Under the pieces are notes generated by a model. That model did not search any database. It was given only the letters and a program-made list of their open reading frames with translations, and was not told where the DNA came from. This document shows, in pieces, positions 6,411 through 25,635 of a stretch of 37,062 nucleotides of DNA. The stretch's first letter is position 1. Each line of letters starts with the position of its first letter. The stretch lies in assembly GCA_038045165.1 (NCBI GenBank), contig JBBSYR010000057.1:1-37062 (forward strand). Reading direction: 5' to 3'. The translations under genes and the position numbers were made by a program. This stretch comes from Nanobdellota archaeon (GTDB taxonomy: Archaea > Nanobdellota > Nanobdellia > Pacearchaeales > GW2011-AR1).

Positions 6411-7559
6411 ATGAAATTTGCGCATATGGGTGACTGCCATCTTGGCGGATGGAGACAGCCAGAATTGAGGGAATTGAATCTAAGAAGTTTTCAATTTGCT
6501 ATTGAAAAATGCATTAAAGAGAGGGTTGATTTTATTCTTATCTCTGGAGATTTGCTGGACTCAGCCTATCCTTCAATTGAGACTCTTAAAGAAACATTTG
6601 GCGAGTTTAGAAAAATAAAAGAAGCGAATATTCCTGTTTTTATAATTGCTGGCAGCCATGATTATTCTGTCTCGGGAAAATCTTTTTTAGATGTGCTTGA
6701 AAAAGCAGGATTTTGCAAAAATGTTTCCTTGTTCGAAGAAAGAAACGGCAAGATTATGCTGCACCCCACTATCATGGGCAATGTTGCTATTTACGGCTAT
6801 CCTGGAAAAAAATCAGGCATGGAAACAAAAGATATTGAAAGAATAAAACTGCACGATTCGCCCGGGCTTTTTAGAATCTTAATGCTGCACACTGCGCTCA
6901 GAGATGCTGTTGGAAATTTGCCGATTGATGCTGTAGACCATAAAATGCTGCCAGATGTTGATTATTTGGCTTTATCACATTTGCATATTAATTATCAAAA
7001 AGAAAAAAGAGTTTATTCTGGTCCAATATTTCCAAACAACCTGCCTGAATTAGAAGAACTAAAGGGCGGCTCGTTCTGGATATTTGATAATGGAAAGATA
7101 AGAAGAGAAGAAATAAAATTGAAGGATGTTCTTGTAATAAATTCTGAATTGGAAGATGCCTTCAAAGCAGCTGAAGAAATAATTTCCTTATTTGAAAAGG
7201 AAATCTTAAGAGATAAAATTGTACTGCTGAAATTATGGGGTATTTTGAAAAAAGGAAAAACCAGTGATATAGATTTTCAGAAAATAGAGGAGTATATGAA
7301 GAAAAAAAGTGTTTTTGTTTTTTTAAAAAGCACGAGCAAGCTTCATGTAAATGAGCCCGAGATAAAAATGGACCATTTAGACCCTGCAAACATAGAAGAG
7401 CAAATAATAAAAAGATTTGAAGAAACCAATCCTAATAAATATAATTCAATTGTTCCTTTTCTTATGAAAGCTCTGCAGATTGAGAAGCTTGAAGATGAAA
7501 AAAGCCAAGCTTTTGAAGAAAGAGTATTGTCAGAAACTAAAAAAATACTTCAAATATGA
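6411..7559 (+). CDS. mre11: DNA double-strand-break repair nuclease Mre11
   Basis: Calcineurin-like phosphoesterase motifs (HMGDCHLG, SGDLLD, AGSHD, MLHT, LSHLH). ATGA overlap with rad50. Confidence 0.9.
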   Translation: MKFAHMGDCHLGGWRQPELRELNLRSFQFAIEKCIKERVDFILISGDLLDSAYPSIETLKETFGEFRKIKEANIPVFIIAGSHDYSVSGKSFLDVLEKAGFCKNVSLFEERNGKIMLHPTIMGNVAIYGYPGKKSGMETKDIERIKLHDSPGLFRILMLHTALRDAVGNLPIDAVDHKMLPDVDYLALSHLHINYQKEKRVYSGPIFPNNLPELEELKGGSFWIFDNGKIRREEIKLKDVLVINSELEDAFKAAEEIISLFEKEILRDKIVLLKLWGILKKGKTSDIDFQKIEEYMKKKSVFVFLKSTSKLHVNEPEIKMDHLDPANIEEQIIKRFEETNPNKYNSIVPFLMKALQIEKLEDEKSQAFEERVLSETKKILQI

Positions 7560-9622: not shown

Positions 9623-9769
9623 AGTTTCTCGCAGCAAACTACTGGGTATTAGGAGATAAAACCGATTCTTATTTTTAATATCCTATCAACCAAATAAGAA
9701 AGTCAGGATTTCTTAAATAGAAGTTTGATTTTTGCAAAGTTCTCTAAAATTCTCGGCGGCCAAATAAGA

Positions 9770-9777
9770 TTTATAAA
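9770..9777 (+). promoter_or_regulatory. TATA box (TTTATAAA) for the 9799 surface-protein gene
   Basis: Starts 29 nt upstream of ATG 9799. This supports 9799 rather than the TTG at 9784. Confidence 0.45.
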
Positions 9778-9798
9778 GTTGAATTGTGTCAAGTGAAG

Positions 9799-12210: not shown

Positions 12211-12217
12211 CTACTGA

Positions 12218-12287
12218 GAGAATTTTTAATTCTCGAGGTGCTCAGAAACGAAGTTTCTGACATTTAGGGAAAGACTTAATGTCTTTC
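12218..12287 (+). other. array of three perfect short hairpins in the intergenic spacer
   Basis: GAGAATT-TTT-AATTCTC (12218..12234), TCAGAAAC-GAA-GTTTCTGA (12242..12260) and GAAAGAC-TTAAT-GTCTTTC (12269..12287). Confidence 0.5.
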
Positions 12288-12301
12288 ACTATAGTTATGT
12301 T

Positions 12302-12309
12302 TTTAAATA
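12302..12309 (+). promoter_or_regulatory. TATA box (TTTAAATA) for the 12329 gene
   Basis: Starts 27 nt upstream of the ATG at 12329. Confidence 0.4.
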
Positions 12310-12328
12310 AAAAAGTGCTGAGAATAGG

Positions 12329-14977
12329 ATGACAAAAAGAGGGATTTTATTAGGCATTTTATTTTTAGCAGCTCTCGCAGCTTTCCTTGCTTCTTTTTCA
12401 GAAGCAAATGTCATTTACAAAAATAATACTATTGAAAAAGAATATTCTGCGGGAGAGGCAATACGAGGAAACGTAAATTTAAGCTTTGATAATGAACTTG
12501 CGCAATCTCTCTTTAAAAGTAATTTTCCTGGAAATATAAGTTTGCTTGACTTGCTTAAAGCAAACTCATTTGAAGAGGGAAAAGATTACAACTGCACAAC
12601 AAAGGACTGCATTAGCGATTATATAATAAAAGCAGAGATAAACAGCTTCTTTTTAAATGAAAGCGAAAAAAAGGCAATAGGTTTTAAAATAACTGGAGAA
12701 GATATAGAAATAAAATCTCTAAAGCTCATCTTGAAAAGCGACGCGCAGCCTGCTTGCTACAGGCAAATAGTGATAGATGCCTTGGGAAAAAATGAAAATC
12801 TTATTCAGAATTCTCGATATACTAATTATGCGTGCGGTTATACTTATAGAGGATGCTTTGAGCCAGATGCGGAAATAGAGCAAGCAGACATTGATGAAGT
12901 TCCTTATTGCGAGAATATCACTCTTCCTTATGGCCCTGCATTTCAGCTTGGAGCAAAAGTAATGAACAGCAGCAAACAGGGAAATCTTAAAATGCAGCTT
13001 TTCAACCAGGATCGCGAGCTGTTAGGAAGTTGCATTCTTCCAAAACACAAAATTTTTAATGAGAATTTGGGATGCATAGTAAACTACAGCAGCACAGAAG
13101 CATCAAATTATTTTGTATGCATTTCGCTTGATTCCGGAAGCAATACAAATTATACTATTGCTTCTGAGAATTCCGGAAGGATATGCGGCATGGCAGGAAT
13201 AGAAGAAGAATTCAGCAGGGATTTTGATATTTTTGCGAAAGAAATGCAATTTGATTCTGTAGATATTGAAATTGCTCAGCCATTATTTGAAAAGCTATTT
13301 TCTGGGGCGAGTTTAATAGAATATGCTCAAAATTATATAGATGAAAAATATAACAAAGACTGCAAAAAGGGCTGTTTTATTCCATTTGAAGTGCAAGGAG
13401 ATGTTCCGCAGACAATTACAATACTAAATCCTGAAATAAAATATTCTGCAAAGCGCGTTAGTTCCACAGCTTCTAAAATTTATGTTTTAGAAAAAGAATC
13501 ACCAAAAATAAAATCTCGATTTCTTAATATTAACATTGAGCACGCAGGATTCAGTATTCCTTTGGGTTCAAAGGAGAACAAATTTAGTTTATACCTTGAA
13601 AATAACATTCTCTTTCAAATTGAAAATTTAACAATTTCTCCAAGTTTTAGTTTTGATATCAGTCCAAAAACTCTTATGATTGCATTTAAAACTGAATTCA
13701 AGATAGACAGCAAAGAGAGTATTGCTTCCTCTAATTGGAAATTTGGAAGTGAGAGCTCTAAGACTGTGAAAGATAAAAAAATAAAATGGATATTTTATAA
13801 TGAAGGAATTTATCCTGTTGAAGTTACCGCTACAAATAAAAAAGGCGTTACATCTAAAAGAAAGTTTTATGTTATAGTTGGAAATGCAAAGGAAGCTGCT
13901 GAACTTTTAGCATCTGATTATCAAAAAGATCTTAATAATTTTTTCAAACAAATAAATTCTTATCCGCAATGGATTAAAGAGGGAATTGATAAAAAAATAA
14001 ATTTCACTGAAATTAATACAAGCTTCAGCGAAATAAAAAATAAAATGAATGAAACGCAGGAAGTTAATTATTCTAAGGTTGTTGCTGAGCTTTCAAATTT
14101 GAAAATTCCGAGTGAGATATTTGCAAGCAAATCATGGAAAAACTTGCCTCTTGAAATAAGTGCTGCGCAAATGGATGTCGGATATATTGAAACCATATCT
14201 AATATGAGTGCTGTAAATAAAGAGGAGCTTAAATTAAATATACTAAACTGGGCCGGGGAGAATTATGCATCTAATATCTCTGGTGAGCTTATTTCTTTGA
14301 AGGTTCAGGATGAAAATGAACCGATTTTGACGAAATTTTTAGTAAGTTTTGAGGCTAAAAGAGAGCAGAGTGAAGCGTATTTTATAATTGATTATCCACG
14401 CAACCAAGTAGTTTTTGCAAAAGATTATGGAGCGAGAGACATCAATTCTGATTCTGCAAGCGCAGCTCATATACCCTTTGCAGGCTCAAAAACATTTGAA
14501 TTTTTAATTTTGCAGGAAATTGAACCTTCTCAGATAAGATTATATCTTTCTCCGAACATAGCGATGTTTAATGAAGAAAGCAATGTGACTCCTGTTGAAA
14601 ATCCAAAGCCAAAGAAAGCCGGATGGGGATATTTTTTTCTCGTGCTTGGAATGCTTATTGTTTACATTGCAATGCAAGAATGGTATAAGAGGAGATATGA
14701 GTTTCATTTATTCAAAATAAAAGATGACTTGTATAACTTAATTAATTTTATCTACAATTCTCGCGCCTCTGGAATGGCTGACAGCAGTATAAAAGCAAAA
14801 TTAGAGGACTCAGGATGGTCTAGTGAGCAGGTAAGTTTTGCATTTAAAAAAATAAATGGAAAAAGAACTGGGATGTTTGAAATTCCCATATTCAAGTTCT
14901 TTGAAAATCTAAAAGTAAAAAAAGAGATTGATAAAAGGCAGCAGACTGGAGACGCAAGGTTTATTAAAAGACTTTAA
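12329..14977 (+). CDS. large surface protein with a PKD-like domain, single C-terminal TM and a short cytoplasmic tail domain
   Basis: Signal peptide (LLGILFLAALAAFLASFSEA) and many N-x-S/T sites. WIFYNEGIYPVEVTATNKKGVTSKRKFYVIV is PKD-like. TM GWGYFFLVLGMLIVYIA, then about 90 cytoplasmic aa. Confidence 0.8.
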   Translation: MTKRGILLGILFLAALAAFLASFSEANVIYKNNTIEKEYSAGEAIRGNVNLSFDNELAQSLFKSNFPGNISLLDLLKANSFEEGKDYNCTTKDCISDYIIKAEINSFFLNESEKKAIGFKITGEDIEIKSLKLILKSDAQPACYRQIVIDALGKNENLIQNSRYTNYACGYTYRGCFEPDAEIEQADIDEVPYCENITLPYGPAFQLGAKVMNSSKQGNLKMQLFNQDRELLGSCILPKHKIFNENLGCIVNYSSTEASNYFVCISLDSGSNTNYTIASENSGRICGMAGIEEEFSRDFDIFAKEMQFDSVDIEIAQPLFEKLFSGASLIEYAQNYIDEKYNKDCKKGCFIPFEVQGDVPQTITILNPEIKYSAKRVSSTASKIYVLEKESPKIKSRFLNINIEHAGFSIPLGSKENKFSLYLENNILFQIENLTISPSFSFDISPKTLMIAFKTEFKIDSKESIASSNWKFGSESSKTVKDKKIKWIFYNEGIYPVEVTATNKKGVTSKRKFYVIVGNAKEAAELLASDYQKDLNNFFKQINSYPQWIKEGIDKKINFTEINTSFSEIKNKMNETQEVNYSKVVAELSNLKIPSEIFASKSWKNLPLEISAAQMDVGYIETISNMSAVNKEELKLNILNWAGENYASNISGELISLKVQDENEPILTKFLVSFEAKREQSEAYFIIDYPRNQVVFAKDYGARDINSDSASAAHIPFAGSKTFEFLILQEIEPSQIRLYLSPNIAMFNEESNVTPVENPKPKKAGWGYFFLVLGMLIVYIAMQEWYKRRYEFHLFKIKDDLYNLINFIYNSRASGMADSSIKAKLEDSGWSSEQVSFAFKKINGKRTGMFEIPIFKFFENLKVKKEIDKRQQTGDARFIKRL
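14960..14967 (+). promoter_or_regulatory. TATA box (TTTATTAA) for the GTPase operon, embedded in the end of the upstream CDS
   Basis: Starts 29 nt upstream of the ATG at 14989. Confidence 0.4.
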
Positions 14978-14988
14978 CTAAAATTTCC

Positions 14989-15627
14989 ATGCTAAGAATA
15001 TTAAGAGACTTTTCAAAAAGAATGCTGAGAAGCTTATTTGGGAAAAAAGAAAGCATAAAAATTGGCTTTTATGGCCCGCCGAATGCAGGAAAAACAAGCC
15101 TCGCCAATAGAATCTGCAAAGACTGGACTGGTGAAGATATCGGGGTTGTAAGCAGAGTGCCTCATGAAACAAGGCATGTCCAGTTCAAAGAAAAAGTTGA
15201 GATAAAACATAAAGGAAAAAGTTTAATATTTAAATTAATAGACACTCCGGGAATAGCGACTAAAATAGATTATGAAAATTTTCTTCATTATGGTATAAAA
15301 AAGGGCGAGGCAAAAAAAAGAGCTAAGGAAGCTACGCAGGGGATCATAGAATCAATTCAATGGCTTGATGACATGAACGCTGTTGTGATAGTGCTTGATG
15401 CTTCTGAAAATCCATACTCCCAAGTGAATATTACAATTATCGGCAATCTTGTTGCCCGAAAGATTCCTGTTCTTATAGTCGCCAATAAAATTGATTTGAA
15501 GAAAGCAGAAGTGAAAAAGGTTGAATCTGCATTTCCAGAGTATGATGTTATTGGCATTTCGGCAAAAGAAGGTATAAATATCGAAGAGTTTTATGAAGCA
15601 TTGTTTAGATTAGCAAAAAAAGTATGA
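14989..15627 (+). CDS. small GTP-binding protein (TRAFAC-class GTPase)
   Basis: G1 GPPNAGKTS, G3 DTPG, G4 NKID, G5 SAK. 212 aa. Confidence 0.85.
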   Translation: MLRILRDFSKRMLRSLFGKKESIKIGFYGPPNAGKTSLANRICKDWTGEDIGVVSRVPHETRHVQFKEKVEIKHKGKSLIFKLIDTPGIATKIDYENFLHYGIKKGEAKKRAKEATQGIIESIQWLDDMNAVVIVLDASENPYSQVNITIIGNLVARKIPVLIVANKIDLKKAEVKKVESAFPEYDVIGISAKEGINIEEFYEALFRLAKKV

Positions 15628-16013
15628 AATATAAAAAATTAAGAGGCTTGAGCTTGCAGGTTATTCCGTTCACAGAGATAGAAAAGCTTAGCATTTCAGA
15701 AAGAGTGAAAAAGGTTTTGAATCTTGTATTAAGCAACAAGATAGTGATAATCCACGGCAGACTTCGAGCCGAAGAGGAAGCGCGGTTGATTGAGGATACT
15801 ATGGCTCTTGTTGACCATGTAAAGAACTTCAAAGGAATTGAGCTGGCAGTCATAGAGCCGGACTTAAAAGATAAGGGCGTGTTTGAGAAGTTCAAGCACG
15901 GCTTGGCGAAAAGGCTTGTTGGGGACAGCGAGGCGCTTACTGTTGTTGGGCCTTCATCAATTGTCAAGGAGATTAAGCGCGATCCGAGAAAGATTGAATT
16001 GTTTTTGAGTTAG
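15624..16013 (+). CDS. conserved archaeal protein, DUF2073-like
   Basis: ATGA-coupled to the GTPase. 129 aa. The pattern ...IVIIHGRLRAEEEARLIEDTM...FKGIEL fits my recollection of DUF2073, which usually sits beside this GTPase. Not verified by search. Confidence 0.55.
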   Translation: MKYKKLRGLSLQVIPFTEIEKLSISERVKKVLNLVLSNKIVIIHGRLRAEEEARLIEDTMALVDHVKNFKGIELAVIEPDLKDKGVFEKFKHGLAKRLVGDSEALTVVGPSSIVKEIKRDPRKIELFLS

Positions 16014-16036
16014 AACTGAGCAATCCCAAACATAAA

Positions 16037-16044
16037 TTTATTAA
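16037..16044 (+). promoter_or_regulatory. TATA box (TTTATTAA) for the Zn-ribbon gene
   Basis: Starts 29 nt upstream of the ATG at 16066. Confidence 0.4.
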
Positions 16045-16065
16045 CTTGGTTTTTTTGGTTATTAT

Positions 16066-16446
16066 ATGCCATACAAATGTGTTCATTGCCTTGAAATTTA
16101 TGAAGACGGCTCGAAGGAAATCTTGACTGGATGCACTAATTGTAAAAGCAAATTCTTTTTTTACATAAAACCTGAGAAACTGAAGGAAATTCTTGAAAGC
16201 GAGGGAAGAGAGCCAGAGCTTTCTGATGCAGAGAAAGAACAGATGGAGCAGGACGTAAGAGAAATTGCTGGCCTTGAAGAGGACGAAGAAACTCCAGTAT
16301 TCCTGGATTTTGAAAGCATACAAGTGCTCAAACCTGGCAAGTATCTTCTGGATTTAACAAAGCTATTTTCAGTCAATAAACCGAGGGTTTATCATCTCGA
16401 GGATGGAAAATATCTAGTTGATTTTACTTCAAAGACTAAGAGTTAA
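16066..16446 (+). CDS. Zn-ribbon protein (DUF2072-like)
   Basis: N-terminal CVHC...CTNC ribbon followed by an acidic linker. 126 aa. Third member of the archaeal GTPase triad as I recall it. Confidence 0.6.
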   Translation: MPYKCVHCLEIYEDGSKEILTGCTNCKSKFFFYIKPEKLKEILESEGREPELSDAEKEQMEQDVREIAGLEEDEETPVFLDFESIQVLKPGKYLLDLTKLFSVNKPRVYHLEDGKYLVDFTSKTKS

Positions 16447-16463
16447 TTTTAGAAAGCAATTAG

Positions 16464-16471
16464 TTTAAATA
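16464..16471 (+). promoter_or_regulatory. TATA box (TTTAAATA) for cca
   Basis: Starts 29 nt upstream of the ATG at 16493. Confidence 0.45.
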
Positions 16472-16492
16472 TACTTTTTTCCTACGGATATT

Positions 16493-17767
16493 ATGGACGC
16501 TAAAAATTTTCTTTCAAAGCTTGAATTTCGGCCTTCTGAAGAAGAATCTAAAATTCTAAGAAAAAAAGCCAATATTTTTGCAGGACTTTTAAAAAAAGAA
16601 TTGAAAAGGAAAAAGATTTTTGCAGAAGTATTTATCGGGGGTAGCATGGCTAAAGGCACGCTTGTTAAAAAAAAGGTAAATGACATTGATTTATTTGTGA
16701 GATTTGACAAAAAACATGAAAATCCTTCTTCTCTGTTGGAGGGTGTTTTGCCGGAATTTTGCAAGAAAAATAAATATAAACTAACTAAAATTCATGGAAG
16801 CAGAGATTATTTTATGCTGCAAAATGAAGAAGGGTTTATTTTTGAAGTTGTTCCAGTACTTAAAATAAAAAATCCGAGAGAGGCGGAAAATGTGACTGAC
16901 TTAAGCTATTTTCATGTTAGATATGCAAAAAAGAAAATGAATAAAGAACTGGCAAGGCAGATTGCCATAATGAAAGCTTTTTGCAAGGCGCAGGATGTTT
17001 ATGGCGCTGAAAGCTATATTGGAGGATTTTCAGGTTATGGCCTCGAATGCCTGATTATTTACTATAAATCATTTGAAAAAATGGCAAAAGCACTCATTAA
17101 TATAAAGTCTAAATTGATTTTAGATCCCGAGAAGAAATATAAAAATAAGAATGATATTTTTCTTGAGATAAATGAAAGTAAAATGCAAAGCCCAATCGTT
17201 CTTATTGACCCTACCTGGAAAGAAAGGAATGTTTTAGCTGCTTTGAGCAATGAGAGTTTTCAGAAATTTCAGAAAGTGCTGAAGGAATTCCTGAAAAAGC
17301 CGAGCTTTGAATTTTTTAAAGATAAAAATGCTGCTGATAAAAAAGCATTGGCTGAATTTGCCAAAAAGAGCAAAGCAGAATTTGTTGAACTAACGCTGTG
17401 GACTGACAGGCAAGGTGGAGATATTGCAGGCACAAAGCTAAAAAGGTTTTATGATTTCCTCGCGGAAGAGCTCGAAAGTGATTTTTCTGTTCTGAAAAAA
17501 GAATTTTATTACTTTGAGAATAAGATGGCTGAAGTTTATTTTGTCTTGGCATCTAAGAAAGAAAAGACCAAAGTGGGGCCATTTACAAATTTGAAGAAAC
17601 ATTGCGAAGCTTTCAGAAAAATGCATAAAGAGATATTTGAAAAAGATGGAAGATTGTATGCCTCTGAAAAAATTAATAAAAGTGCAAAGAAATTTATTAA
17701 GGATTATGCTAAAGGAAATAAGAAAAAGATAAGCGAGATGGGAATAACCGAAGTCGTTATTAGATAA
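16493..17767 (+). CDS. cca: archaeal class I CCA-adding enzyme (tRNA nucleotidyltransferase)
   Basis: 424 aa. Pol-beta NTase motif GGSMAKGTLVKKKVNDIDLFV. Length and downstream layout are typical of archaeal CCA enzymes. Confidence 0.7.
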   Translation: MDAKNFLSKLEFRPSEEESKILRKKANIFAGLLKKELKRKKIFAEVFIGGSMAKGTLVKKKVNDIDLFVRFDKKHENPSSLLEGVLPEFCKKNKYKLTKIHGSRDYFMLQNEEGFIFEVVPVLKIKNPREAENVTDLSYFHVRYAKKKMNKELARQIAIMKAFCKAQDVYGAESYIGGFSGYGLECLIIYYKSFEKMAKALINIKSKLILDPEKKYKNKNDIFLEINESKMQSPIVLIDPTWKERNVLAALSNESFQKFQKVLKEFLKKPSFEFFKDKNAADKKALAEFAKKSKAEFVELTLWTDRQGGDIAGTKLKRFYDFLAEELESDFSVLKKEFYYFENKMAEVYFVLASKKEKTKVGPFTNLKKHCEAFRKMHKEIFEKDGRLYASEKINKSAKKFIKDYAKGNKKKISEMGITEVVIR

Positions 17768-17802
17768 TTCCCAGCCGAAAGAATTTATTATGGATAATTC
17801 TG

Positions 17803-17899
17803 TTACAGAAAACTGCGTAGCTTGTAGCACATTTTGTACGCAGTTTTCTGTCTGGAGAACTGCAACGCAGAGAGCTACAAGTAATGCAGTTATCCATAT
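17803..17899 (+). repeat. 97-nt structured repeat element, copy A
   Basis: Reverse complement of 24344..24435 apart from a 5-nt indel and 1 mismatch. Contains a perfect 15-bp hairpin (17805..17819 with 17837..17851). Confidence 0.9.
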
Positions 17900-18134
17900 T
17901 TTTATTATTCAGCTAATCGTTTACGTCGAAAATAACCTCTTTTCATGAATAGAAAGTTTTGTGCATTTTTAATAAATATAGATGATTCAAGGATATCAAT
18001 TTTGAAAACTAATATTTAATAATCTAAGTTTTTCTCATACTCGCATGAAGGGATTTATTTAAGTGAATGACCTAATTATATCACGCACTCGTTCGCATGA
18101 GAAGTATTAAAAACCCAAAAAAACATTTTAATAT

Positions 18135-19058
18135 ATGAAACATTCTTTAAAAGTAACTATGGTTCTGCTGGCAATGTTTTTTATCAGCCAGTTAATTGGA
18201 TTGGGAGTTAGTGGATATTATTCGCCTGAAGTGCATCAGGTTCAAGCAGAAAATGGAACTTTAGTGAATATTACTGAATATAATCTTCCATACGGAATGA
18301 ACCCTCCGCAAAATACAGACCCCCAGCTTAATGTTATCTCAATAATTATTTCCATAGTGATGGCAGTTGTTCTTATGCTTATTCTTATGAAAGTGAAGGC
18401 GGCGATGTTTCTAAGATGCTGGTTTTTCTTAGTTGTTACTCTGGCAATAGCAATAACCTTAAACACTATTTTATCCTGGCAAAAATATGCTGCCGTGATT
18501 GCAATAATAATAGCTCTGCCTCTTGCGTTTTTTAAAATCTTCAAGAGAAATATAATAGTACATAATTTGACTGAACTGATTATTTATCCAGGAATTGCAG
18601 CAATATTTGTTCCTCTGCTTAATCTCTGGACTGTTTCTTTGCTGTTAGTTGTTATTTCGATTTACGATATTTACGCTGTTTGGCATGCAGGATTTATGCA
18701 AAAAATGGCAAAATATCAGATACAAAAATTGAAGTTTTTCTCAGGATTTTTTATTCCTTATCTTAGCAAAAAGCAGAGAATGCTGGTTGAAAAAATGAAG
18801 AACAAAAAGACTAATAAAATAAAAGTTAGTGTTGCAATTCTTGGGGGAGGCGACGTGGTATTTCCAATTATTCTTGCAGGAGTTGTTTTAGATATCTGGG
18901 GATTTTTGCCTGCTTTAGTTATTTCCATAGGTGCAGCAATTGCTTTGGCTTTGCTGTTTTATTTTTCTGAAAAAGGAAAGTTTTATCCCGCCATGCCTTT
19001 TATTTCAGCAGGATGCTTTGCGGGATTAGGAATTGCTTATCTGATTACTTTATTTTAA
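18135..19058 (+). CDS. presenilin / signal-peptide-peptidase-type intramembrane aspartyl protease (A22 family)
   Basis: Polytopic membrane protein with YD (SIYDIYAV), GxGD (LGGGDVVFP) and PAL (FLPALV) motifs in the canonical order. Confidence 0.8.
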   Translation: MKHSLKVTMVLLAMFFISQLIGLGVSGYYSPEVHQVQAENGTLVNITEYNLPYGMNPPQNTDPQLNVISIIISIVMAVVLMLILMKVKAAMFLRCWFFLVVTLAIAITLNTILSWQKYAAVIAIIIALPLAFFKIFKRNIIVHNLTELIIYPGIAAIFVPLLNLWTVSLLLVVISIYDIYAVWHAGFMQKMAKYQIQKLKFFSGFFIPYLSKKQRMLVEKMKNKKTNKIKVSVAILGGGDVVFPIILAGVVLDIWGFLPALVISIGAAIALALLFYFSEKGKFYPAMPFISAGCFAGLGIAYLITLF

Positions 19059-19300
19059 ACTTAATTATTGAAATGAACAATCTTATAATCTCGTTTAATC
19101 GGGCAATTATTTAAAGTTGTATTTTTTTATTTGTTTGGCTCATGAATATGTATTCGAGGCGGGCGTTCAGTCATTCTTTCTTGTAAATAAGTAGCATCTA
19201 TAGGAATCACAGCAGTTATACTTCGATAGGATACAAATGCAGGTCTATCTGTCTAAATAGATTCATGCTCCAATTTTTCGCCATCTTTAGAGTGCATTAC

Positions 19301-19519
19301 TCAGGGAGAAAAATGTGTTTGATGTGCTAAAAAAGGCTGCAAAACTAAATCCTCATTTCTTAATCCTTGGTATACGCCAATAAATGAGCCTCCTTGGCTG
19401 CAAAATTCAACTAACCTGCCTTTGTGGAAATTGTATGGCTCTCTAGACGAAGAGGCAAACTCGCTCTCTGGAATAGCATTTTCAGGCATTATTCTAATTT
19501 CTTTAAAATTTGTGTTCAT
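19301..19519 (-). CDS. small hypothetical protein (72 aa)
   Basis: The ORF has a TTTAAAAA box exactly 29 nt upstream of its ATG. No family recognised. Confidence 0.4.
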   Translation of the reverse strand: MNTNFKEIRIMPENAIPESEFASSSREPYNFHKGRLVEFCSQGGSFIGVYQGLRNEDLVLQPFLAHQTHFSP

Positions 19520-19540
19520 ATTTATTCAGACGATGCTTTG

Positions 19541-19548
19541 TTTTTAAA
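19541..19548 (-). promoter_or_regulatory. TATA box (TTTAAAAA) for the 72-aa ORF
   Basis: Starts 29 nt upstream of the ATG at 19519 on the minus strand. Confidence 0.4.
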
Positions 19549-19592
19549 GCTTTCTATCCGATTGTCATTTAGTAGTTGCAACATACGAAAGA

Positions 19593-19600
19593 TTTAAATA
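19593..19600 (+). promoter_or_regulatory. TATA box (TTTAAATA) for the repeat-protein/trmB operon
   Basis: Starts 30 nt upstream of the ATG at 19623. Confidence 0.4.
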
Positions 19601-19622
19601 CCCTTTATTTCATTACTATGAC

Positions 19623-20273
19623 ATGACAGAAGAAAAGAAACCAGCAAGACTTGGAGAATACGTAAAGAGAACTTTATATTCTTTATTGGGAGCTGCAGCT
19701 ATTGCAGGAACTTATTCAGCACACGAAGGAGATTGCCCGCCTTTTTATGTAAATAAAACTGGAAATAGCGGAGGAATATGCCTTGGAGTTAGAGTTGATA
19801 TTAAAGAAGGAGCTAAATTTTATGGAGGAGTTATTTCTTTCTACGGAATAAACGGGGGAGAAATTAATGGTATAAGAGTCGGGTTTAGAAATGCAAGCGA
19901 TAGTGGAAAATTAAATGGCTTGGAAGCTGGATTTCTTAATATATTTGATACAACTAATTCTTTACCTGCAAAGATTAATGGTTTGCAGGTTGGAATAGGT
20001 AATGTAATGAGAGATGGAAATGGTTTGCAGGTTGGGTTAGTTAATATGATGAGAGATGGAAATGGTTTGCAGGTTGGGTTAGTTAATATGATGAGAGATG
20101 GAAATGGTTTGCAGGTTGGGTTAGCTAACGGCATGAGAGATGGAAATGGTTTGCAGGTTGGATTAGGTAATAAAGTAGTATGCCAAGATAAAAAGCGCTA
20201 TAGTGTGGGCTTAAACTACTCATTTGAAGGAAATAATAAAGATAAAACAAAAGCGGAGGAATCTAAAAAATGA
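19623..20273 (+). CDS. membrane-anchored/secreted protein built of NG(L/I)xxGxxN 14-aa repeats
   Basis: N-terminal hydrophobic segment (LYSLLGAAAIAGTYSA), then degenerate repeats followed by near-perfect repeats MRDGNGLQVGLVNM. Confidence 0.7.
   Translation: MTEEKKPARLGEYVKRTLYSLLGAAAIAGTYSAHEGDCPPFYVNKTGNSGGICLGVRVDIKEGAKFYGGVISFYGINGGEINGIRVGFRNASDSGKLNGLEAGFLNIFDTTNSLPAKINGLQVGIGNVMRDGNGLQVGLVNMMRDGNGLQVGLVNMMRDGNGLQVGLANGMRDGNGLQVGLGNKVVCQDKKRYSVGLNYSFEGNNKDKTKAEESKK
19977..20186 (+). repeat. 5 x 42-bp tandem repeat inside the CDS
   Basis: Units start at 19977, 20019, 20061, 20103 and 20145. Units 2 and 3 are identical. Confidence 0.95.
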
Positions 20274-21070
20274 TGATAAAACCTGAATTAGTCAAGAGAA
20301 TAAAAGATTACTTTAATCTAAATATCTATGAAACTAAAGTCTGGCTTTCCTTGCTTTCAAAAGGAATTGCCTCTGCAAGAGAGGTTGCTGACCTTTCTGG
20401 AGTGCCTAGAAGCAGAACATACGATGTTCTTGAATCTTTGGAGAAGCGGGGATTCGCAATTACCAAAGTTGGAAAGCCCGTCAAATATATTTCTGTTAAG
20501 CCAACTGAAATAATCGAAAAAATGAAGGGTAATGTTATGCAGGAAGCACATGATAAAGTCAAATCTCTGGTAACATTGAAAGAAACTCAAGAATATACTG
20601 AATTGGTGCAGCTTCATAATTCAGGCATAACGCCTATTAAAGCCTGCGATATTACAGGCTCATTGAAAGGAAGAGCAAACGTTCTTTCAAGATTAAGAGA
20701 ATTGCTTGAAAACTCTAAAGATGAAGTTGTAATCAGCACAACTGTTCTTGATTTTGAAGATAAGAGCAGAGTAATCGGAGCAGTGCTTGAAAAATTGAAC
20801 AAGAATAATATTAAAGTCAAACTTGGCTTATCTGGCGACGTGGAAAAAATAAAAAAGATAAATGCGAAATTTAATTTGAAAGCCAAGCAGATTGAATCAA
20901 GCGCAAGGGCGTTTATTTCTGACAAAAAAGAAGCTGTTTTTTTAATTACCCCTGAAAATTCAGATGAAGAAATAGGGATATGGTTTAATGCTCCTTTTTT
21001 CACAGAATCCATGGCTGGAATTTTTGAGCATTCAATTAAGAACAACGGATTGAATGGCAGCAAGATTTAA
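20270..21070 (+). CDS. TrmB-family transcriptional regulator
   Basis: N-terminal winged HTH YETKVWLSLLSKGIASAREVADLSGVPRSRTYDVLESLEKRGF. 266 aa. ATGA overlap with the repeat-protein gene. Confidence 0.85.
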   Translation: MMIKPELVKRIKDYFNLNIYETKVWLSLLSKGIASAREVADLSGVPRSRTYDVLESLEKRGFAITKVGKPVKYISVKPTEIIEKMKGNVMQEAHDKVKSLVTLKETQEYTELVQLHNSGITPIKACDITGSLKGRANVLSRLRELLENSKDEVVISTTVLDFEDKSRVIGAVLEKLNKNNIKVKLGLSGDVEKIKKINAKFNLKAKQIESSARAFISDKKEAVFLITPENSDEEIGIWFNAPFFTESMAGIFEHSIKNNGLNGSKI

Positions 21071-21073
21071 ATA
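21066..21073 (+). promoter_or_regulatory. TATA box (TTTAAATA) overlapping the trmB stop codon
   Basis: Starts 29 nt upstream of the ATG at 21095. Confidence 0.4.
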
Positions 21074-21094
21074 AGCAGAGGAAAACATTATTAC

Positions 21095-21424
21095 ATGCTG
21101 AATATAACTGACGAACAAAGAGATGCAATAGATGCTCAAGTTAGAGAAAGAGTTTTACATGAAATATATTTAAACCAGCGCCAGAAATTTTTACCTGTTG
21201 CTGCAATGGTTTTTTGTAGAGCAAGCTTAGGACTTGGTATTAATTTAGAAAACGCCTGTCCGTATATGCGAGATTGTGATAATAAGGCTCATGTTCTTTG
21301 CGTTGATAATTCTTATAGGAACTGCCCATATTATACACTGCACTTAACAACAGATTTTCTTGATGGTCAAATAGATTTGGCTCAAGCAGGAATAGAACAA
21401 AATGTTTCTTTGCCTGCAAAGTAA
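21095..21424 (+). CDS. hypothetical Cys-containing protein (109 aa)
   Basis: ORF with canonical TATA spacing. CPYMRDC....C....CPYY. Followed by the hairpin TTTGTCC-TTT-GGACAAA. Confidence 0.5.
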   Translation: MLNITDEQRDAIDAQVRERVLHEIYLNQRQKFLPVAAMVFCRASLGLGINLENACPYMRDCDNKAHVLCVDNSYRNCPYYTLHLTTDFLDGQIDLAQAGIEQNVSLPAK

Positions 21425-21681
21425 AGCGCTCACTCAAATGGTTTGTCCTTTGGACAAATCCTCTTTCAGCGGAGTATGACATCAGAAAACCAAATAAATT
21501 ATTATCTTCTGCAGCGACTTACTTCTCAGACATCGACTGATTATTTATTATATTTTTATTGTGCCCCCGCATTATTTTACTTGCATGGCAAGATTATAGG
21601 GGTATAAAAAATAAATAATAAGAGCATTGTTTTTTGGTAAAATCTATTATAAAAACAACTTGAGTAATCTTAAAGGATTTT

Positions 21682-23574
21682 TTATTTCAGCCTAATCGTC
21701 TCAAGATTTCTTGGCACAGAGGTTTCTATATGAAATTGCTTGTAAAGCGAGGATGCCAAGTCAAGGCATTTTGAAACTTCACCATGATTTACAATTATTT
21801 TTTTTGGCTTTGGAATCATTCTGCTGACGTATTGCAAAAGCTCGGTTCTTCCTGAGTGCGCCGATAATCCATTTAAGGTTTCTACCTGCATTTTAACAGA
21901 AATTTTTTCATTGCCATTGTCTTTGCCGATTATAACTTCTCTGTGGCCTTCCTGCAATTGCCTGCCTGTTGAACCGATTGGCTGATAACAGCCAAAGACA
22001 ATTGCATTATTCGGGTTATCAGCTAAATTCTTAAAATATTCAACTGACGCGCCTCCGACAAGCATTCCAGAAGTTGCAATAATTATGCATGGCCCCCCCT
22101 CTAAAACTTGCTGCCTTTCAACTGGGCTGCCGATTCTTTTTAAGATATCTGAAACAAAAGGGTTATTATCCTGAAAAATTTGATTTCTGACTGATGCGCT
22201 CAAGAAATCTGGATAAGCTGTATGAATTGCGTTAATATCCCATATCATGCCGTCGATATAAACTGGCACTTTTGGAAGCTCGCCTGTTCTGACTGCCTCC
22301 TCGACTCTTAGCACAGTCTCCTGTGCATGGCCTAATCCAAGTTCAGGAAGCAAAATTTTTCCGTTCCTCGCAATTACTGCTTTTGCTATTTCAATAAATT
22401 TATTTTCAGTTTCCTGCCTCGGCGGCAAAATATCTTCTTTTGCGCCGTATGTTGATTCGATAATCAAAGTTTCAACTCTTGGAAAATGATTTACTGCAGG
22501 ATCTAGCAATCGAGTCTTTGCATATTTTGTATCTGCGCCGTAAACTAAATTATGCAGTCCGTTGCCAATATTAATATGAACTTGGGAAGCTCCAAGAACA
22601 TGACCTGCATTGTATAATGTAATTCTTATATCCGGAGTTATATCAGTAACTTCTCCAAAATCTAAAGAAATTGAATGCCTCACCATTTCTTTTACGTCTT
22701 CTGCTTTGTATAATGGAAAGGATGCTTGTTTGTATGCTATTCCTATGAAATCTAAAGTTAACAGAGCAGCTATATCTCTTGTTGGCTCTGTTAAATAAAC
22801 AGGCCCTTTATAACCCATTTTATATAAGTACGGAATTAATCCGGAATGATCCAAGTGAGCGTGCGAAAGTATTACTGCATCTATTGAATTTAAATCTCCG
22901 ATTTCTGGAAGATTTAGATAGGGAAATTTTTCTGAATCTTCTGTTGCTGCAGGATTTATTCCGCAGTCAAGCAAGACTTTTGAATTTGGTGTTTGCAGCA
23001 AGAAACATGAGCGACCAACTTGCCTTCCACTGCCAAGAACAGTAATTCTTACCCAGATATCTTTTTTTTCAGGATTCCACTCATTGTAAATTTTTTTGCC
23101 AATGTCATTAAGAAATTTTCTTCTGTAATTATTATTTGCGTATAAAACAGAGCGTATTTTTTCTGTAATTTTGCTTTGAATTGTCGGGCTTCTTCTGACT
23201 GAGGGAGTCCACATCGTTGATTTTCTAATATCGTTTAGAATAGCGCCTTGCTTTCCTATAACTAAACCTGGTTTTTTTGCCTCTATAATCAGCGAACTTC
23301 GTTGAATGTCAAAGATTATATTCATTATTTCTGCTTCTTCTGGAACAAGTGCACGAATTGTTTTTTCAGTATCTGCTTCTGAAGCAAGAATTGACTGCTC
23401 CGCCCGAAGCTCTATCCTTTTCTTGATTTTATCAACTATTGCTCTTATTTTTGTTTCGCTTGTTTTAAAAAATTCTTTATCACGCGTGTATAAAACTATG
23501 TTTGCCCCTTCAAATGCCGCGTCGTCTATTATATTGGGCAATTCTTCTTTAATGCTTTTTAAAATGTCTGCCAT
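21682..23574 (-). CDS. fttA: aCPSF1/FttA: KH-domain beta-CASP metallo-beta-lactamase ribonuclease (archaeal transcription termination factor)
   Basis: 630 aa. N-terminal KH-like region (GLVIGKQGAILNDI), MBL motif LSHAHLDHSG, and beta-CASP/C-terminal His motif (VNHGE). Confidence 0.9.
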   Translation of the reverse strand: MADILKSIKEELPNIIDDAAFEGANIVLYTRDKEFFKTSETKIRAIVDKIKKRIELRAEQSILASEADTEKTIRALVPEEAEIMNIIFDIQRSSLIIEAKKPGLVIGKQGAILNDIRKSTMWTPSVRRSPTIQSKITEKIRSVLYANNNYRRKFLNDIGKKIYNEWNPEKKDIWVRITVLGSGRQVGRSCFLLQTPNSKVLLDCGINPAATEDSEKFPYLNLPEIGDLNSIDAVILSHAHLDHSGLIPYLYKMGYKGPVYLTEPTRDIAALLTLDFIGIAYKQASFPLYKAEDVKEMVRHSISLDFGEVTDITPDIRITLYNAGHVLGASQVHINIGNGLHNLVYGADTKYAKTRLLDPAVNHFPRVETLIIESTYGAKEDILPPRQETENKFIEIAKAVIARNGKILLPELGLGHAQETVLRVEEAVRTGELPKVPVYIDGMIWDINAIHTAYPDFLSASVRNQIFQDNNPFVSDILKRIGSPVERQQVLEGGPCIIIATSGMLVGGASVEYFKNLADNPNNAIVFGCYQPIGSTGRQLQEGHREVIIGKDNGNEKISVKMQVETLNGLSAHSGRTELLQYVSRMIPKPKKIIVNHGEVSKCLDLASSLYKQFHIETSVPRNLETIRLK

Positions 23575-23601
23575 TTTTTATTTTAAAACTTAAATAATAA
23601 T

Positions 23602-24264
23602 TTATTTGTATTCTGCAATAATTTCTTCAGAAACTACATGCTTGATTCCGTCTTTTGTTATGCTGAAGACATCTATTCCATTGCCAGAGCCAACATCTCT
23701 TTGAGTAGATGATTTTATGCATTCTTTGGCAAGCTCGATGGCTTCTTTGACTGAAAGGTCTTTTTTATAAGCTCTCTCCAAAAATCCGAGGATATAGGGC
23801 ATTCCAGAGGAAAAATTCGCATCATAATCTTCAACTTCATCTACTGCACCAGCAGGTTCAATAGAAAATAGAGAGGCTTTTCCATCCTCATCAACACCTG
23901 CAATCAAACTTCCAACAATATTTGGAATCATTGTCGGATTTCTTATATTTCTATAAGTCATCATGGCTAATAAGTGTGCAGCTTCCTTGACCGAAGGGCG
24001 AGATTTTGTTTTAAGCTCTTTCAACCTTAATTCGGCAGCTAGAACCTTATTGGTCAATTGCAAATCAGCAACACCCCCAGTATATGCCGCAGCAAGATAA
24101 TCATTGATTTTGTTTATTTTTATATGATTCTTGGAGAGCACTATTGTGCCTGCAGTTCCTCTTCTATCTGCACCAATGATAACTCCGTCTTTGCAAACAA
24201 TTCCAACTAAACTCGTATTTGATTTTAATATGTTTTGGCTTATATCTTGATTGTTCGAATTCAT
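23602..24264 (-). CDS. psmB: proteasome subunit beta
   Basis: TSLVGIVCKDGVIIGADRRGT... With Thr as residue 1, Asp17 and Lys33 fall in register. 16-aa propeptide. Confidence 0.9.
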   Translation of the reverse strand: MNSNNQDISQNILKSNTSLVGIVCKDGVIIGADRRGTAGTIVLSKNHIKINKINDYLAAAYTGGVADLQLTNKVLAAELRLKELKTKSRPSVKEAAHLLAMMTYRNIRNPTMIPNIVGSLIAGVDEDGKASLFSIEPAGAVDEVEDYDANFSSGMPYILGFLERAYKKDLSVKEAIELAKECIKSSTQRDVGSGNGIDVFSITKDGIKHVVSEEIIAEYK

Positions 24265-24285
24265 AAGAACTTATATCCTCTAGTT

Positions 24286-24293
24286 ATTTTTAT
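24286..24293 (-). promoter_or_regulatory. TATA box (ATAAAAAT) for psmB-fttA
   Basis: Starts 29 nt upstream of the ATG at 24264 on the minus strand. Confidence 0.4.
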
Positions 24294-24343
24294 TGACTAT
24301 TTCAGTATTTAAGTCTTGCGGTTTTAGTTTTTTTAGGTATCTG

Positions 24344-24435
24344 ATATGGCTAACTGCATTACTTGTAGCTCTCTGCGTTGCAGTTCTCCAGACAGAACGT
24401 ACAAAATGTGCTACAAGCTACGCAGTTTTCTGTAA
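24344..24435 (-). repeat. 92-nt structured repeat element, copy B (inverted relative to copy A)
   Basis: Its reverse complement aligns to 17803..17899 with one 5-nt deletion and one mismatch. Confidence 0.9.
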
Positions 24436-24696
24436 TTATTAATGCCTCGGAGAAAAGAAGAGAAAGTTAAAGTCAGAGGGCGGCATATCTCTGTTTAGAA
24501 CAGCCTTATGAAATAATTTCGGGATAGCACAAAATAAATCCTTTCAGTAACCTTTAAAAACCTCATTTATCTTGAAAAATTGAATCTAATTGAAAGAAAG
24601 ATTTGCTCGCTCTGATAAAGCATACACAAGTCTAAATATTCACAGAAGTAAAGATTGAGTTGCATCTAAAAATGAAATACACAAACAATACAATAG

Positions 24697-25635
24697 ATGG
24701 CAAAGTTATCAAATCCGCACGCAGGAAGTCTGCAGTTCTGGCCGCGCAAAAGGGCAGAAAAAATTATTCCTAGTGTCAACTGGCAGCCAGTAAAAGGCAA
24801 AGGTCTTCTCGGTTTTATTGCATACAAAGTTGGAATGGCCTCTGTTCTCGTAAAAGACAACACTCCTGATTCAATGACCAAAGGCAAAAAAATAGTTCTC
24901 CCTGTAACAATTCTAGAGATTCCCAATATAAAGGTTTATTCAGTCAGATTCTATAAATTCGGAAAAGTCCTGAAAGACGTTATTGTTTCTAATGATAAAG
25001 AGTTAAAGAGGATAGTAAAACTTCCGAAGCAAATCCTGCCTTTTGATTTTCTGATACCTAAAGATTATGATGACATAAAAATAATTATTTACTCGCTGCC
25101 AAAACAAACTTCAATTAAAAAAACTCCAGACTTAATTGAAATCGCATTTGCTGCAGATGACAAGCTCGCTTTTGTTAAATCTCTTTTAGGCAAAGAGCTC
25201 TCGCTAAAAGAATTTTTTACTTCTGATTTAGTTGATGCTCGCGGTTTGACAATCGGCAAAGGTCTCGTAGGTCCAGTCAAAAGATTTGGCATAACTCTAA
25301 AGCAGCACAAAACAGAAAAAGGAGTCAGGCGCCCAGGAAGCTTATCTCCTTGGCATCCAGCAAGAGTCACTTTCAGAACGCCCATGGCTGGTCAATTAGG
25401 CATGTTCTCACGGGTTCACTATAATCTCAAAGTTATCTCTGCGTCTTCAATTACAGAAAAAGATATCAATCCATCAGGAGGGTTTAAAAATTACGGAAAA
25501 ATAAAATCAAATTATATTCTAATAAAAGGAAGTGTCCAAGGTCCGCCAAAGAGGCAGGTTTTGCTGACTCAATCTTACAGACCGACTAAATCTCCAGCAA
25601 AGAAAAAATATGAACTTATCGAGGTGCTAAGATGA
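24697..25635 (+). CDS. rpl3: 50S ribosomal protein uL3
   Basis: N-terminus PHAGSLQFWPRKRA, plus its operon position. Confidence 0.95.
   Translation: MAKLSNPHAGSLQFWPRKRAEKIIPSVNWQPVKGKGLLGFIAYKVGMASVLVKDNTPDSMTKGKKIVLPVTILEIPNIKVYSVRFYKFGKVLKDVIVSNDKELKRIVKLPKQILPFDFLIPKDYDDIKIIIYSLPKQTSIKKTPDLIEIAFAADDKLAFVKSLLGKELSLKEFFTSDLVDARGLTIGKGLVGPVKRFGITLKQHKTEKGVRRPGSLSPWHPARVTFRTPMAGQLGMFSRVHYNLKVISASSITEKDINPSGGFKNYGKIKSNYILIKGSVQGPPKRQVLLTQSYRPTKSPAKKKYELIEVLR

Follow-up and report, generated by a model that had tools for sequence, protein, structure and literature searches.

Inverted repeats bracketing a 6.4-kb gene block in a DPANN archaeon are very probably two independent insertions of a ~95-nt non-autonomous DNA transposon

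The window, that is, the whole 37,062-nt stretch of DNA analyzed here, comes from a Pacearchaeota/Woesearchaeota-type (DPANN) genome of ~1.04 Mb from Hainich groundwater (assembled portion, 82%). Within it, two long spacers flank a 6.4-kb block of genes, and each spacer holds one arm of an inverted repeat. The features of the locus are as follows.

17768..18134, no strand: spacer 1, 367 nt, from the CCA-adding enzyme gene (16493-17767, +) to the presenilin/SPP-like protease gene (18135-19058, +); contains copy 1
17804..17898, plus strand: putative MITE copy 1, 95-nt subfamily, with TA at 17804-17805 and 17897-17898
17805..17851, plus strand: hairpin 1 of copy 1, 15-bp stem ACAGAAAACTGCGTA / TACGCAGTTTTCTGT
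17853..17896, plus strand: hairpin 2 of copy 1, stem GGAGAACTGCA / TGCAGTTATCC, one mismatch
24265..24696, no strand: spacer 2, 432 nt, between the divergent genes psmB (23602-24264, -) and rpL3 (24697-25635, +); contains copy 2
24345..24434, minus strand: putative MITE copy 2, 90 nt, the 91-nt subfamily form minus one more base

An inverted-repeat search of the window joined the two repeats through two adjoining segments, one with arms at 17803-17840 and 24398-24435 (38 nt, 100% complementary) and the other with arms at 17846-17899 and 24344-24397 (54 nt, 98% complementary). The segments are split by a 5-nt indel, CAGTT, which is present in copy 1 and missing from copy 2. All remaining inverted repeats in the window are at most 34 nt long at 70-83%, and the pair therefore stands far above chance. 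The near-identical inverted pair reported in the first-pass annotation is thus real, with 17804-17898 (+) and 24345-24434 (-) differing by the one 5-nt indel and one mismatch. These coordinates are the element borders, the extra flanking base on each side in 17803..17899 and 24344..24435 being a chance match. Both copies are intergenic, as had also been stated, and their spacers of 367 nt and 432 nt compare with a genome median of 62 nt. Copy 2 is located 80 nt upstream of psmB and carries a T>G substitution in its second hairpin, on the 3' arm.

The element was compared by BLAST with its own genome, which returned 40 full-length copies, 34 of them at 91-100% identity and 6 at 72-84%; element fragments are found at a further 10 contig ends. 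At least five further copies match copy 1 at 100% identity. Alignment of the copies revealed sharp TA...TA ends with unrelated flanks, as in a MITE. Genome-wide, the copies are nearly always intergenic and have no constant orientation to genes. Two length subfamilies account for most of them, one of 95 nt (n=21) and one of 91 nt (n=15). Copy 1 is of the 95-nt type and copy 2 of the 91-nt type, and the two are therefore independent insertions. One alternative offered in the first-pass annotation, that the repeats are two copies of a MITE/REP-like element, is accordingly borne out: the ~45-50 scattered copies have TIRs and duplicate a TA at the target site. The BLAST check that it proposed, for copy number and flanking duplications, yielded the 40 full copies and a TA duplicated between empty and filled sites.

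The element consensus reads TA|(C/T)AGA(A/G)AACTGCG-loop-CGCAGTT(T/C)TCT(G/A)..GGA(G/T)AACTGC-loop-TGCAGTTATCCA|TA and describes two tandem hairpins, each formed by an inverted pair of the motif GAnAACTGC. The left half approximates the reverse complement of the right half, which gives a long imperfect TIR. Specifically, TACAGAAAACTGC matches the reverse complement of the 3' end, TATGGATAACTGC, at 10/13 positions (18/25 when extended), and TATAGATAACTGC is the corresponding end in other subfamilies. The inner TIR helix is 69% paired, compared with 30-38% when slid. Over 20 distinct sequences the hairpins are 93% paired, and three stem pairs are altered on both sides across species. The two hairpin loops are reverse complements of each other rather than direct copies, so that the element halves are inverted repeats. 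Copies measure 90-98 nt, and the element is without an ORF of its own; the sole ORF across copy 1, a frame of 52 aa, continues into the flank. Both size and coding capacity are thus those of a MITE.

Insertion could be followed at a second repeat of ~100 nt, family B, of which seven copies hold the element, all at one position. Eight empty B copies read CCCTCGAATAACTC, with one TA, while filled copies read ...GAATA[element]TAACTC; the only difference between empty (n=8) and filled (n=7) sites is therefore the element and one additional TA, which constitutes a target-site duplication. All seven filled sites may descend from one insertion, in which case the duplication is shown for essentially one event, together with the universal TA...TA flanks. 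Among 33 independent flanks, 20 have G at position -2, 21 have A at -1, 14 have C at +2, and 22 have T at +3, giving a palindromic target consensus, AGA|TA|TCT. Neither window copy was polymorphic for presence or absence, which gives no sign that either has moved recently.

Related copies also occur outside this genome. When 185,579 species genomes were scanned for the pattern, 28 loci were found in 16 MAGs. The labels are Pacearchaeota, Woesearchaeota, Nanoarchaeota, or Nanoarchaeia for 15 of the MAGs and simply "archaeon" for the other. Almost all of these copies are 95 nt long and TA-flanked. In the metagenome scan, the left flank of copy 1 had no exact match.

Overall, we conclude that the two repeats are very probably independent, oppositely oriented insertions of a ~95-nt non-autonomous DNA transposon (MITE) with ~45-50 copies in the genome. 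The proposed mover would be a dimeric DDE transposase of the IS630/Tc1-mariner kind, which would act in trans by binding the GAnAACTGC motifs and would be missing from the 82% of the genome that was assembled, or lost. The 6.4-kb block would then be no functional unit, the copies presumably having landed in two long spacers. A duplicated TA target is characteristic of IS630/Tc1-mariner elements; the element is filed as IS630-derived because of this duplication and for no other reason, as no transposase with matching ends was found.

An autonomous partner with the same ends was found neither in the own 82%-complete genome nor in 201 family genomes nor at 80 loci of 318 metagenomic IS630-type transposase relatives. 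The genome contains two IS630-type DDE_3 genes, both frameshifted. The TIRs of the resident IS630-type family are different (TATAGTnAnGGAC...AATTGAACA), both in this genome and in those metagenomic relatives with ends examined; its ~1.09-kb members carry TATAGTnAnGGACnnAAnTAAnTGAACA and have only the outermost TATAG in common with the element. GAnAACTGC ends were found in 0/7 of the DDE_3-bearing genomes among the 201 family members, and the element flanks none of the DDE_Tnp_1 and Y1_Tnp loci. A search of the own genome for TIR motif pairs 130-4000 bp apart recovered only two separate MITEs. The mariner Pfam model had no match in the genome, but as it likewise had none in any control genome, this negative carries no weight. 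Two candidate links were rejected: an AACTGC motif near the transposase on contig C99, the only one among the DDE_Tnp_1 loci, lies inside the ORF, and a weak colinear similarity of the element to the flanks of an insertion sequence on C123 was dropped after the true ends of that insertion sequence had been mapped.

A near-constant length of 95 nt and paired hairpins in at least 17 DPANN species, together with no matching transposase in ~200 related genomes, leave some room for a mover of another sort. There is a slight chance that its mobility depends on an enzyme not yet described, perhaps one that works on hairpin DNA, or that it is a structured DNA or RNA signal adopted by the host; either way, the copies at synteny breakpoints could be actively seeding rearrangements in these tiny genomes.

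Somewhat less probable still is a single-strand hairpin element of the IS200/IS605 or REP/RAYT kind, in which a Y1 (HUH) transposase recognizes both of the similar hairpins on a single strand and inserts the element 3' of TA without true duplication. IS200/IS605 elements insert in this one-sided manner, 3' of a fixed target, and the flanking TAs could have arisen in the same way, with no duplication, from an element ending in TA; formally, target TA plus element-end TA fits. Similar stems lie in the same orientation close to each element end and are kept paired by compensatory changes, and the genome has three Y1_Tnp genes and no TnpB. However, both flanks are constrained, and the palindromic target is that expected of a symmetric DDE dimer and not of a one-sided Y1 target. 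The reverse-complementary loops likewise mark the halves as inverted repeats, and the element flanks none of the three Y1 genes; next to one of these is another repeat family. The TA duplication also speaks against REP/REPIN-RAYT and IS200/IS605 elements.

The lead claim of the first-pass annotation was that the repeats allow the 6.4-kb block to invert. Homologous or site-specific recombination between the inverted copies would flip the block and alter expression of the border genes, and inverted repeats of 90-95 nt at 94% identity are a possible substrate for homologous recombination. The region is also prone to rearrangement, both MITE-bearing spacers being synteny breakpoints relative to 12 congeners. 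Nevertheless, the pair represents 2 of ~50 copies and belongs to two subfamilies; the psmB-MITE2-rpL3 junction is identical, in one orientation, in five further assemblies of the same population; and no congener with contigs across the region has the block flipped as a unit. Congener G001, which is without the element, keeps the order CCA-adding enzyme, protease through TrmB, fttA and psmB, with the CCA-adding enzyme and protease genes ~23 nt apart (367 nt in the window). Congener rearrangements end elsewhere, for example at 21425-21681, where there is no copy. No recombinase gene lies within or adjoining the block: Pfam calls were limited to SPP, TrmB, FttA domains, Proteasome, ribosomal L3, and tRNA_NucTransf2, and three small ORFs of the region had no Pfam match. 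Invertons such as Hin/Gin and fimS have a dedicated recombinase nearby, short unique inverted repeats, and both orientations in the population. The locus resembles them in that a DNA segment is bracketed by inverted repeats; unlike them, it has no recombinase, its repeats are 2 of ~50 dispersed copies, and one orientation occurs in all assemblies. Separate subfamilies, a single junction in five assemblies, the missing flipped block, and the missing recombinase leave the claim without support, and we regard inversion as very improbable, though rare recombination between the copies may occur. A MITE-mediated origin of the local rearrangements was considered separately and rejected, since G001, which lacks the element, is arranged in the same way and no copy lies at the partner breakpoints.

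More improbable again is an assembly artefact, with the second copy, or the junction spanning it, made by the assembler. Because at least five other copies are identical to copy 1, short reads cannot bridge it unambiguously, and six contigs of other assemblies end inside it, at 17831, 17848, and 17856. The join across copy 1 consequently rests on this contig and on synteny with one congener, G001, where the CCA-adding enzyme and protease genes are likewise neighbors and keep their orientation. Against an artefact, independent assemblies show each flank of copy 1 with its half-element, copy 2 and the whole of spacer 2 are identical in five other assemblies, and ~50 copies exist with differing flanks.

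Equally remote is the other suggestion of the first-pass annotation, a small structured RNA gene, or a cis-regulatory RNA, in many copies. Copy 1 folds strongly into two hairpins (dG -25.4 kcal/mol, z -6.5), the stems show compensatory changes across species, the 95-nt length is conserved, and each window copy is oriented towards its downstream gene. On the other hand, the opposite strand folds equally well, the two-hairpin fold is mostly gone from copy 2 (z -2.1), 15 copies have a 4-nt deletion in a stem, the flanks bear a target-site duplication, and orientation and distance to genes vary genome-wide. Rfam 15 gave no match at the gathering score in the window or at E<=1 in 17600-24800, and a tRNA scan had no match. 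The suggestion is therefore not supported, if not strictly refuted.

The MITE reading places the element beside several known systems. RUP (repeat unit of pneumococcus) and MITEEc1/ERIC are bacterial MITEs tied to IS630-family elements. Like RUP and other IS630-tied bacterial MITEs, the element is ~100 nt long and non-coding, with many intergenic copies, TIRs, a duplicated TA, and stable hairpins. RUP has ends in common with the resident IS630-Spn1, whereas here no insertion sequence with GAnAACTGC ends was found and the TIRs of the resident IS630-type family are unrelated; the element differs further in its DPANN archaeal host and its two tandem hairpins. Correia elements (CREE) of Neisseria are 100-155 bp long, with 26-bp TIRs and promoter and IHF sites. 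The element is comparable to them in being small, TIR-bounded, and hairpin-forming, with a TA duplication, no known autonomous partner, and abundance in a small genome, although the sequences are unrelated and no promoter or IHF sites were noticed in the element. Sulfolobus SM1-SM4 are archaeal MITEs and provide a precedent for non-autonomous elements in archaea. The name MITEEc1_IS630 appears in PMC11602168. The same paper, a MITE census of 8,220 archaeal genomes, found high densities in DPANN, with 105 per Mb in one Woesearchaea genome (PMC11602168). The 95-nt family with GAnAACTGC ends is named in none of the papers found by a literature search.

Under the favored MITE reading, the repeats are selfish DNA of an ordinary sort, and they do not delimit a switchable cassette made up of the protease, TrmB, fttA, and psmB genes. 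The ~50 near-identical copies make up ~0.45% of a 1-Mb genome, and the assembly is interrupted by them at 10 or more contig ends. These copies are markers for typing strains and may serve as rearrangement substrates. More broadly, genome-reduced, episymbiotic DPANN archaea would still carry recently active selfish DNA, with several MITE families residing in the same genome.

A repeat search of the window bore out the near-identical inverted repeats of the first-pass annotation, resolving them into two adjoining pairs of arms, one of 38 nt with 100% complementarity (17803-17840 and 24398-24435) and one of 54 nt with 98% complementarity (17846-17899 and 24344-24397), separated by a 5-nt indel, CAGTT, that is absent from copy 2. 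The remaining inverted repeats of the window are all 34 nt or shorter, at 70 to 83%. Both copies are intergenic, as had been stated, and their spacers are unusually long, at 367 and 432 nt compared to a genome median of 62 nt in an ORF-based gene set made in the present analysis.

Element copies of the window and their gene setting
17804-17898, (+) strand: copy 1, in spacer 17768-18134, 36 nt past the stop of the CCA-adding enzyme gene (16493-17767) and 236 nt ahead of the presenilin/SPP-like protease gene (18135)
24345-24434, (-) strand: copy 2, in the divergent spacer (24265-24696) between psmB and the gene for ribosomal protein L3, 80 nt from psmB and 262 nt from the L3 gene

The genes first listed for this region agree with Pfam calls on other assemblies (SPP, TrmB, FttA domains, and Proteasome); in the same calls, three small ORFs have no Pfam match. 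Upstream of TrmB, 4 to 5 near-identical 42-bp tandem units (19977-20186) lie within the 216-amino-acid repeat-protein ORF (19623-20273), and a contig of another assembly stops at 20328, no more than approximately 200 nt beyond the array.

The suggested copy-number check, a BLAST search of the element against its own genome (1.04 Mb in 144 contigs, 82% complete, 34% GC; the window is contig C57), placed the pair in a dispersed family of approximately 45 to 50 copies, which make up about 0.45% of the assembled sequence. The search returned 40 full-length copies, 34 of them at 91 to 100% identity and 6 at 72 to 84%, together with a few partial copies and fragments at 10 contig ends (C92, C70, C14, C61, C113, C91, C66, C106, C41, and C67); the element is a main cause of fragmentation in this MAG assembly. 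When flanks were included in the alignment, the ends of the element were sharp, with all copies reading TA(C/T)AGA...CCATA between unrelated flanks. Two length classes predominate: 21 copies measure 95 nt, and 15, with 4 nt deleted from the 3' arm of the first hairpin, measure 91 nt. Copy 1 belongs to the 95-nt class and has at least five identical counterparts elsewhere in the genome, and copy 2 is the sole 90-mer, a 91-type copy minus one further base and with a T>G change. As the two belong to different subfamilies, their sequences indicate that they arose as separate insertions.

Seven element copies occupy one position inside a second dispersed, MITE-like repeat of approximately 100 nt, family B, which numbers at least 15 copies, is bounded by TIRs of its own (AGAGGATTTGGAAAAACCCC ... 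GGGTTATTCAAAGCTCTCT), and is likewise TA-flanked. Eight family B copies are empty and read ...CCCTCGAATAACTCAAAA... with a single TA (type, C61:5485-5594), whereas filled copies read ...CCCTCGAATA[CAG...CCA]TAACTCAAAA... (for example, C23:1380-1570 and C130:6640-6835); the two states differ by exactly the element and one TA. Insertion of the element thus leaves a duplicated TA, the target-site duplication that the first-pass annotation had proposed to look for. Because the outer flanks of the filled copies differ, the composite itself has spread; the nested unit seems to have moved as a whole, and the seven filled sites, in which the fixed TA of family B bears a 95- or 91-nt element, may represent one original insertion. 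The 4-nt stem deletion is found in nested and free copies alike, beside undeleted copies of both kinds (C48:206-296, C42:8065-8155, and C92:1-87 versus C23, C123:8677-8771, C130, and C39). To account for this pattern, the deletion must have recurred, the element must have inserted more than once at the same TA, or copies must have undergone gene conversion. The copy at C123:8677-8771 adjoins the left half of family B at its left but unrelated sequence at its right; two element copies may have recombined here, or the repeat may have given rise to a chimeric assembly.

In 33 independent flanks, base preferences are evident to either side of the TA, giving a palindromic consensus, AGA|TA|TCT.

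Preferred bases at the target
Position -2: G, 20/33
Position -1: A, 21/33
Position +2: C, 14/33
Position +3: T, 22/33

This symmetric, two-sided target fits a dimeric DDE transposase making a 2-bp staggered cut, and fits less well with the one-sided target of IS200/IS605-type elements.

Copy 1 is predicted to fold into two tandem hairpins (dG -25.4 kcal/mol, z -6.5), and its opposite strand folds equally well (z -7.0); in copy 2, the fold is largely gone (z -2.1). The stems are built of four GAnAACTGC motifs in the order forward, reverse, forward, reverse, and the hairpin 1 loop (CTTGTAGC) is reverse-complementary to a stretch of the hairpin 2 loop (GCTACAAG). The left half of the element therefore repeats the right half imperfectly, in inverted orientation. 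The halves agree at 18 of 25 terminal positions and at 10 of the terminal 13, and the terminal match is better in divergent subfamilies (TATAGATAACTGC). Pairing across 20 distinct sequences reaches 93% in the two hairpins and 69% in the inner TIR helix, the latter compared to 30 to 38% in slid controls; as the search pattern fixed much of the 3' arm, only free positions carry weight. Three stem pairs are altered on both sides (U-A to C-G, G-C to A-U or U-A, and G-C to A-U). Compensation is confined to single hairpins, pointing to maintenance of the palindromes as such, which could reflect selection on hairpin form or template switching within quasi-palindromes.

The first-pass annotation had centered on the possibility that the repeats allow the 6.4-kb block between them to invert, a claim for which we find no support. 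Frequent flipping would make the psmB-rpL3 junction ambiguous, yet the identical 432-nt spacer with copy 2 joins these genes in four ENA assemblies from Hainich groundwater well H43 and in the NCBI MAG GCA_964363325.1. Among 16 congeners compared, none whose contigs span the region carries the block flipped as a unit, and no recombinase is encoded near it. Six contigs (ENA, NCBI, and Logan) end inside copy 1, at 17831, 17848, or 17856, as expected of a 95-nt exact multicopy repeat; consequently, the window's contig is the only one that shows copy 1 joined on both sides. The two copies may still recombine homologously at low frequency.

Both element-bearing spacers do coincide with synteny breakpoints. 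In 12 of the 16 congeners, psmB, fttA, the protease gene (PSH), and TrmB lie on one strand, followed by a convergent CCA-enzyme cluster, and mre11-rad50 adjoins psmB in 13 of 16. The order in these 12 is rad50, psmB-fttA, PSH-TrmB, and the reversed CCA-enzyme cluster; that shared by the window's genome and congener G001 is rad50, CCA-enzyme cluster, PSH..TrmB, and reversed fttA-psmB, such that window positions 6411-24696, compared with loci L076-L091, differ by nested inversions. G001 has no element copy detectable by BLAST, and only about 23 nt separate its CCA-enzyme gene from PSH. That the order is shared by a genome in which no copy was detected places the arrangement before the insertions and also supports the window's join. 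The old breakpoints include 21425-21681, without an element copy, and in this comparison the psmB-rpL3 junction was found in the window's genome alone, with rpL3 24 to 47 kb from fttA in G001, G009, and G010. Most simply, breakpoints would give rise to long and permissive spacers where MITEs can persist. The other breakpoint of the PSH-TrmB inversion is spacer 21425-21681 (from the Cys-protein ORF to the 3' end of fttA), which holds a third dispersed repeat, family C (21480-21560; approximately 18 copies at 72 to 80% identity; core CATCAGAAAACAAAACCAATTATTATCTTCTGCAACGACTTGCC..TCAGACATCAGCTAATTATTTATTTT), a candidate MITE, 3' UTR element, or small RNA.

That the element is instead a small structured RNA gene is opposed by its strand-symmetric fold, by orientations and distances to adjacent genes that differ from copy to copy, by the stem deletion in 15 copies, and by the lack of any tRNA in a tRNA scan or Rfam match at gathering score or at E≤1.

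Given the TA duplication, the element behaves like an IS630/Tc1-mariner MITE. Two IS630-type DDE_3 genes are present in the genome; in both, the reading frame is interrupted by a frameshift at a run of A, a possible sign of programmed frameshifting or of decay.

IS630-type genes of the genome
C123:17131-18131, (-) strand
C118:15414-16573, (-) strand

Metagenome tracing of the C123 gene gave a family of 318 relatives, with an IS of approximately 1.09 kb and TIRs TATAGTnAnGGACnnAAnTAAnTGAACA, which has only the outermost TATAG in common with the MITE ends. This IS type occurs in groundwater and sediment metagenomes (loci L103-L149), many members being stand-alone contigs of 1.0 to 1.1 kb. GAnAACTGC ends were not found beside DDE_3 genes, either in this genome or in the 7 genomes with DDE_3 genes out of 201 from the family; one defining feature of membership, the sharing of ends with an IS630-family element, was thus not seen for the candidates at hand. 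Within the genome, neither the DDE_Tnp_1 matches (three above the Pfam cutoff and four weaker) nor the three Y1_Tnp genes are flanked by the element, TnpB was not found, and no gene lies between any two element ends spaced 130 to 4,000 bp apart. Another repeat family, the fourth, has a unit of approximately 108 nt (C123:714-892) with over 20 genomic matches; it immediately precedes one of the three IS200/RAYT-like Y1 genes (C123:890-1207), and the two may form a REP/PATE-type system.

By BLAST, recognizable relatives of the element were found in 2 of 60 related genomes and 1 of 16 congeners, and a structure-aware pattern scan of one genome per species (185,579 species) recovered 28 loci in 16 MAGs. 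Fifteen of these are labeled Candidatus Pacearchaeota, Woesearchaeota, Nanoarchaeota, or Nanoarchaeia, and one just "archaeon." A census of 8,220 archaeal genomes reported very high MITE densities in DPANN, with 105 per Mb in a Woesearchaea genome (PMC11602168). Copies extracted from the MAGs of the pattern scan have flanking TAs, and almost all of them measure 95 nt. We found no paper naming the family; its nearest analogues are the RUP, Correia, and ERIC-type MITEs of bacteria and, in archaea, MITEs like those known from Sulfolobus. With dispersed copies, TIRs, and a TA duplication, the alternative first offered, two copies of a MITE-like element, was right, and the family is a new MITE family of an already known sort.
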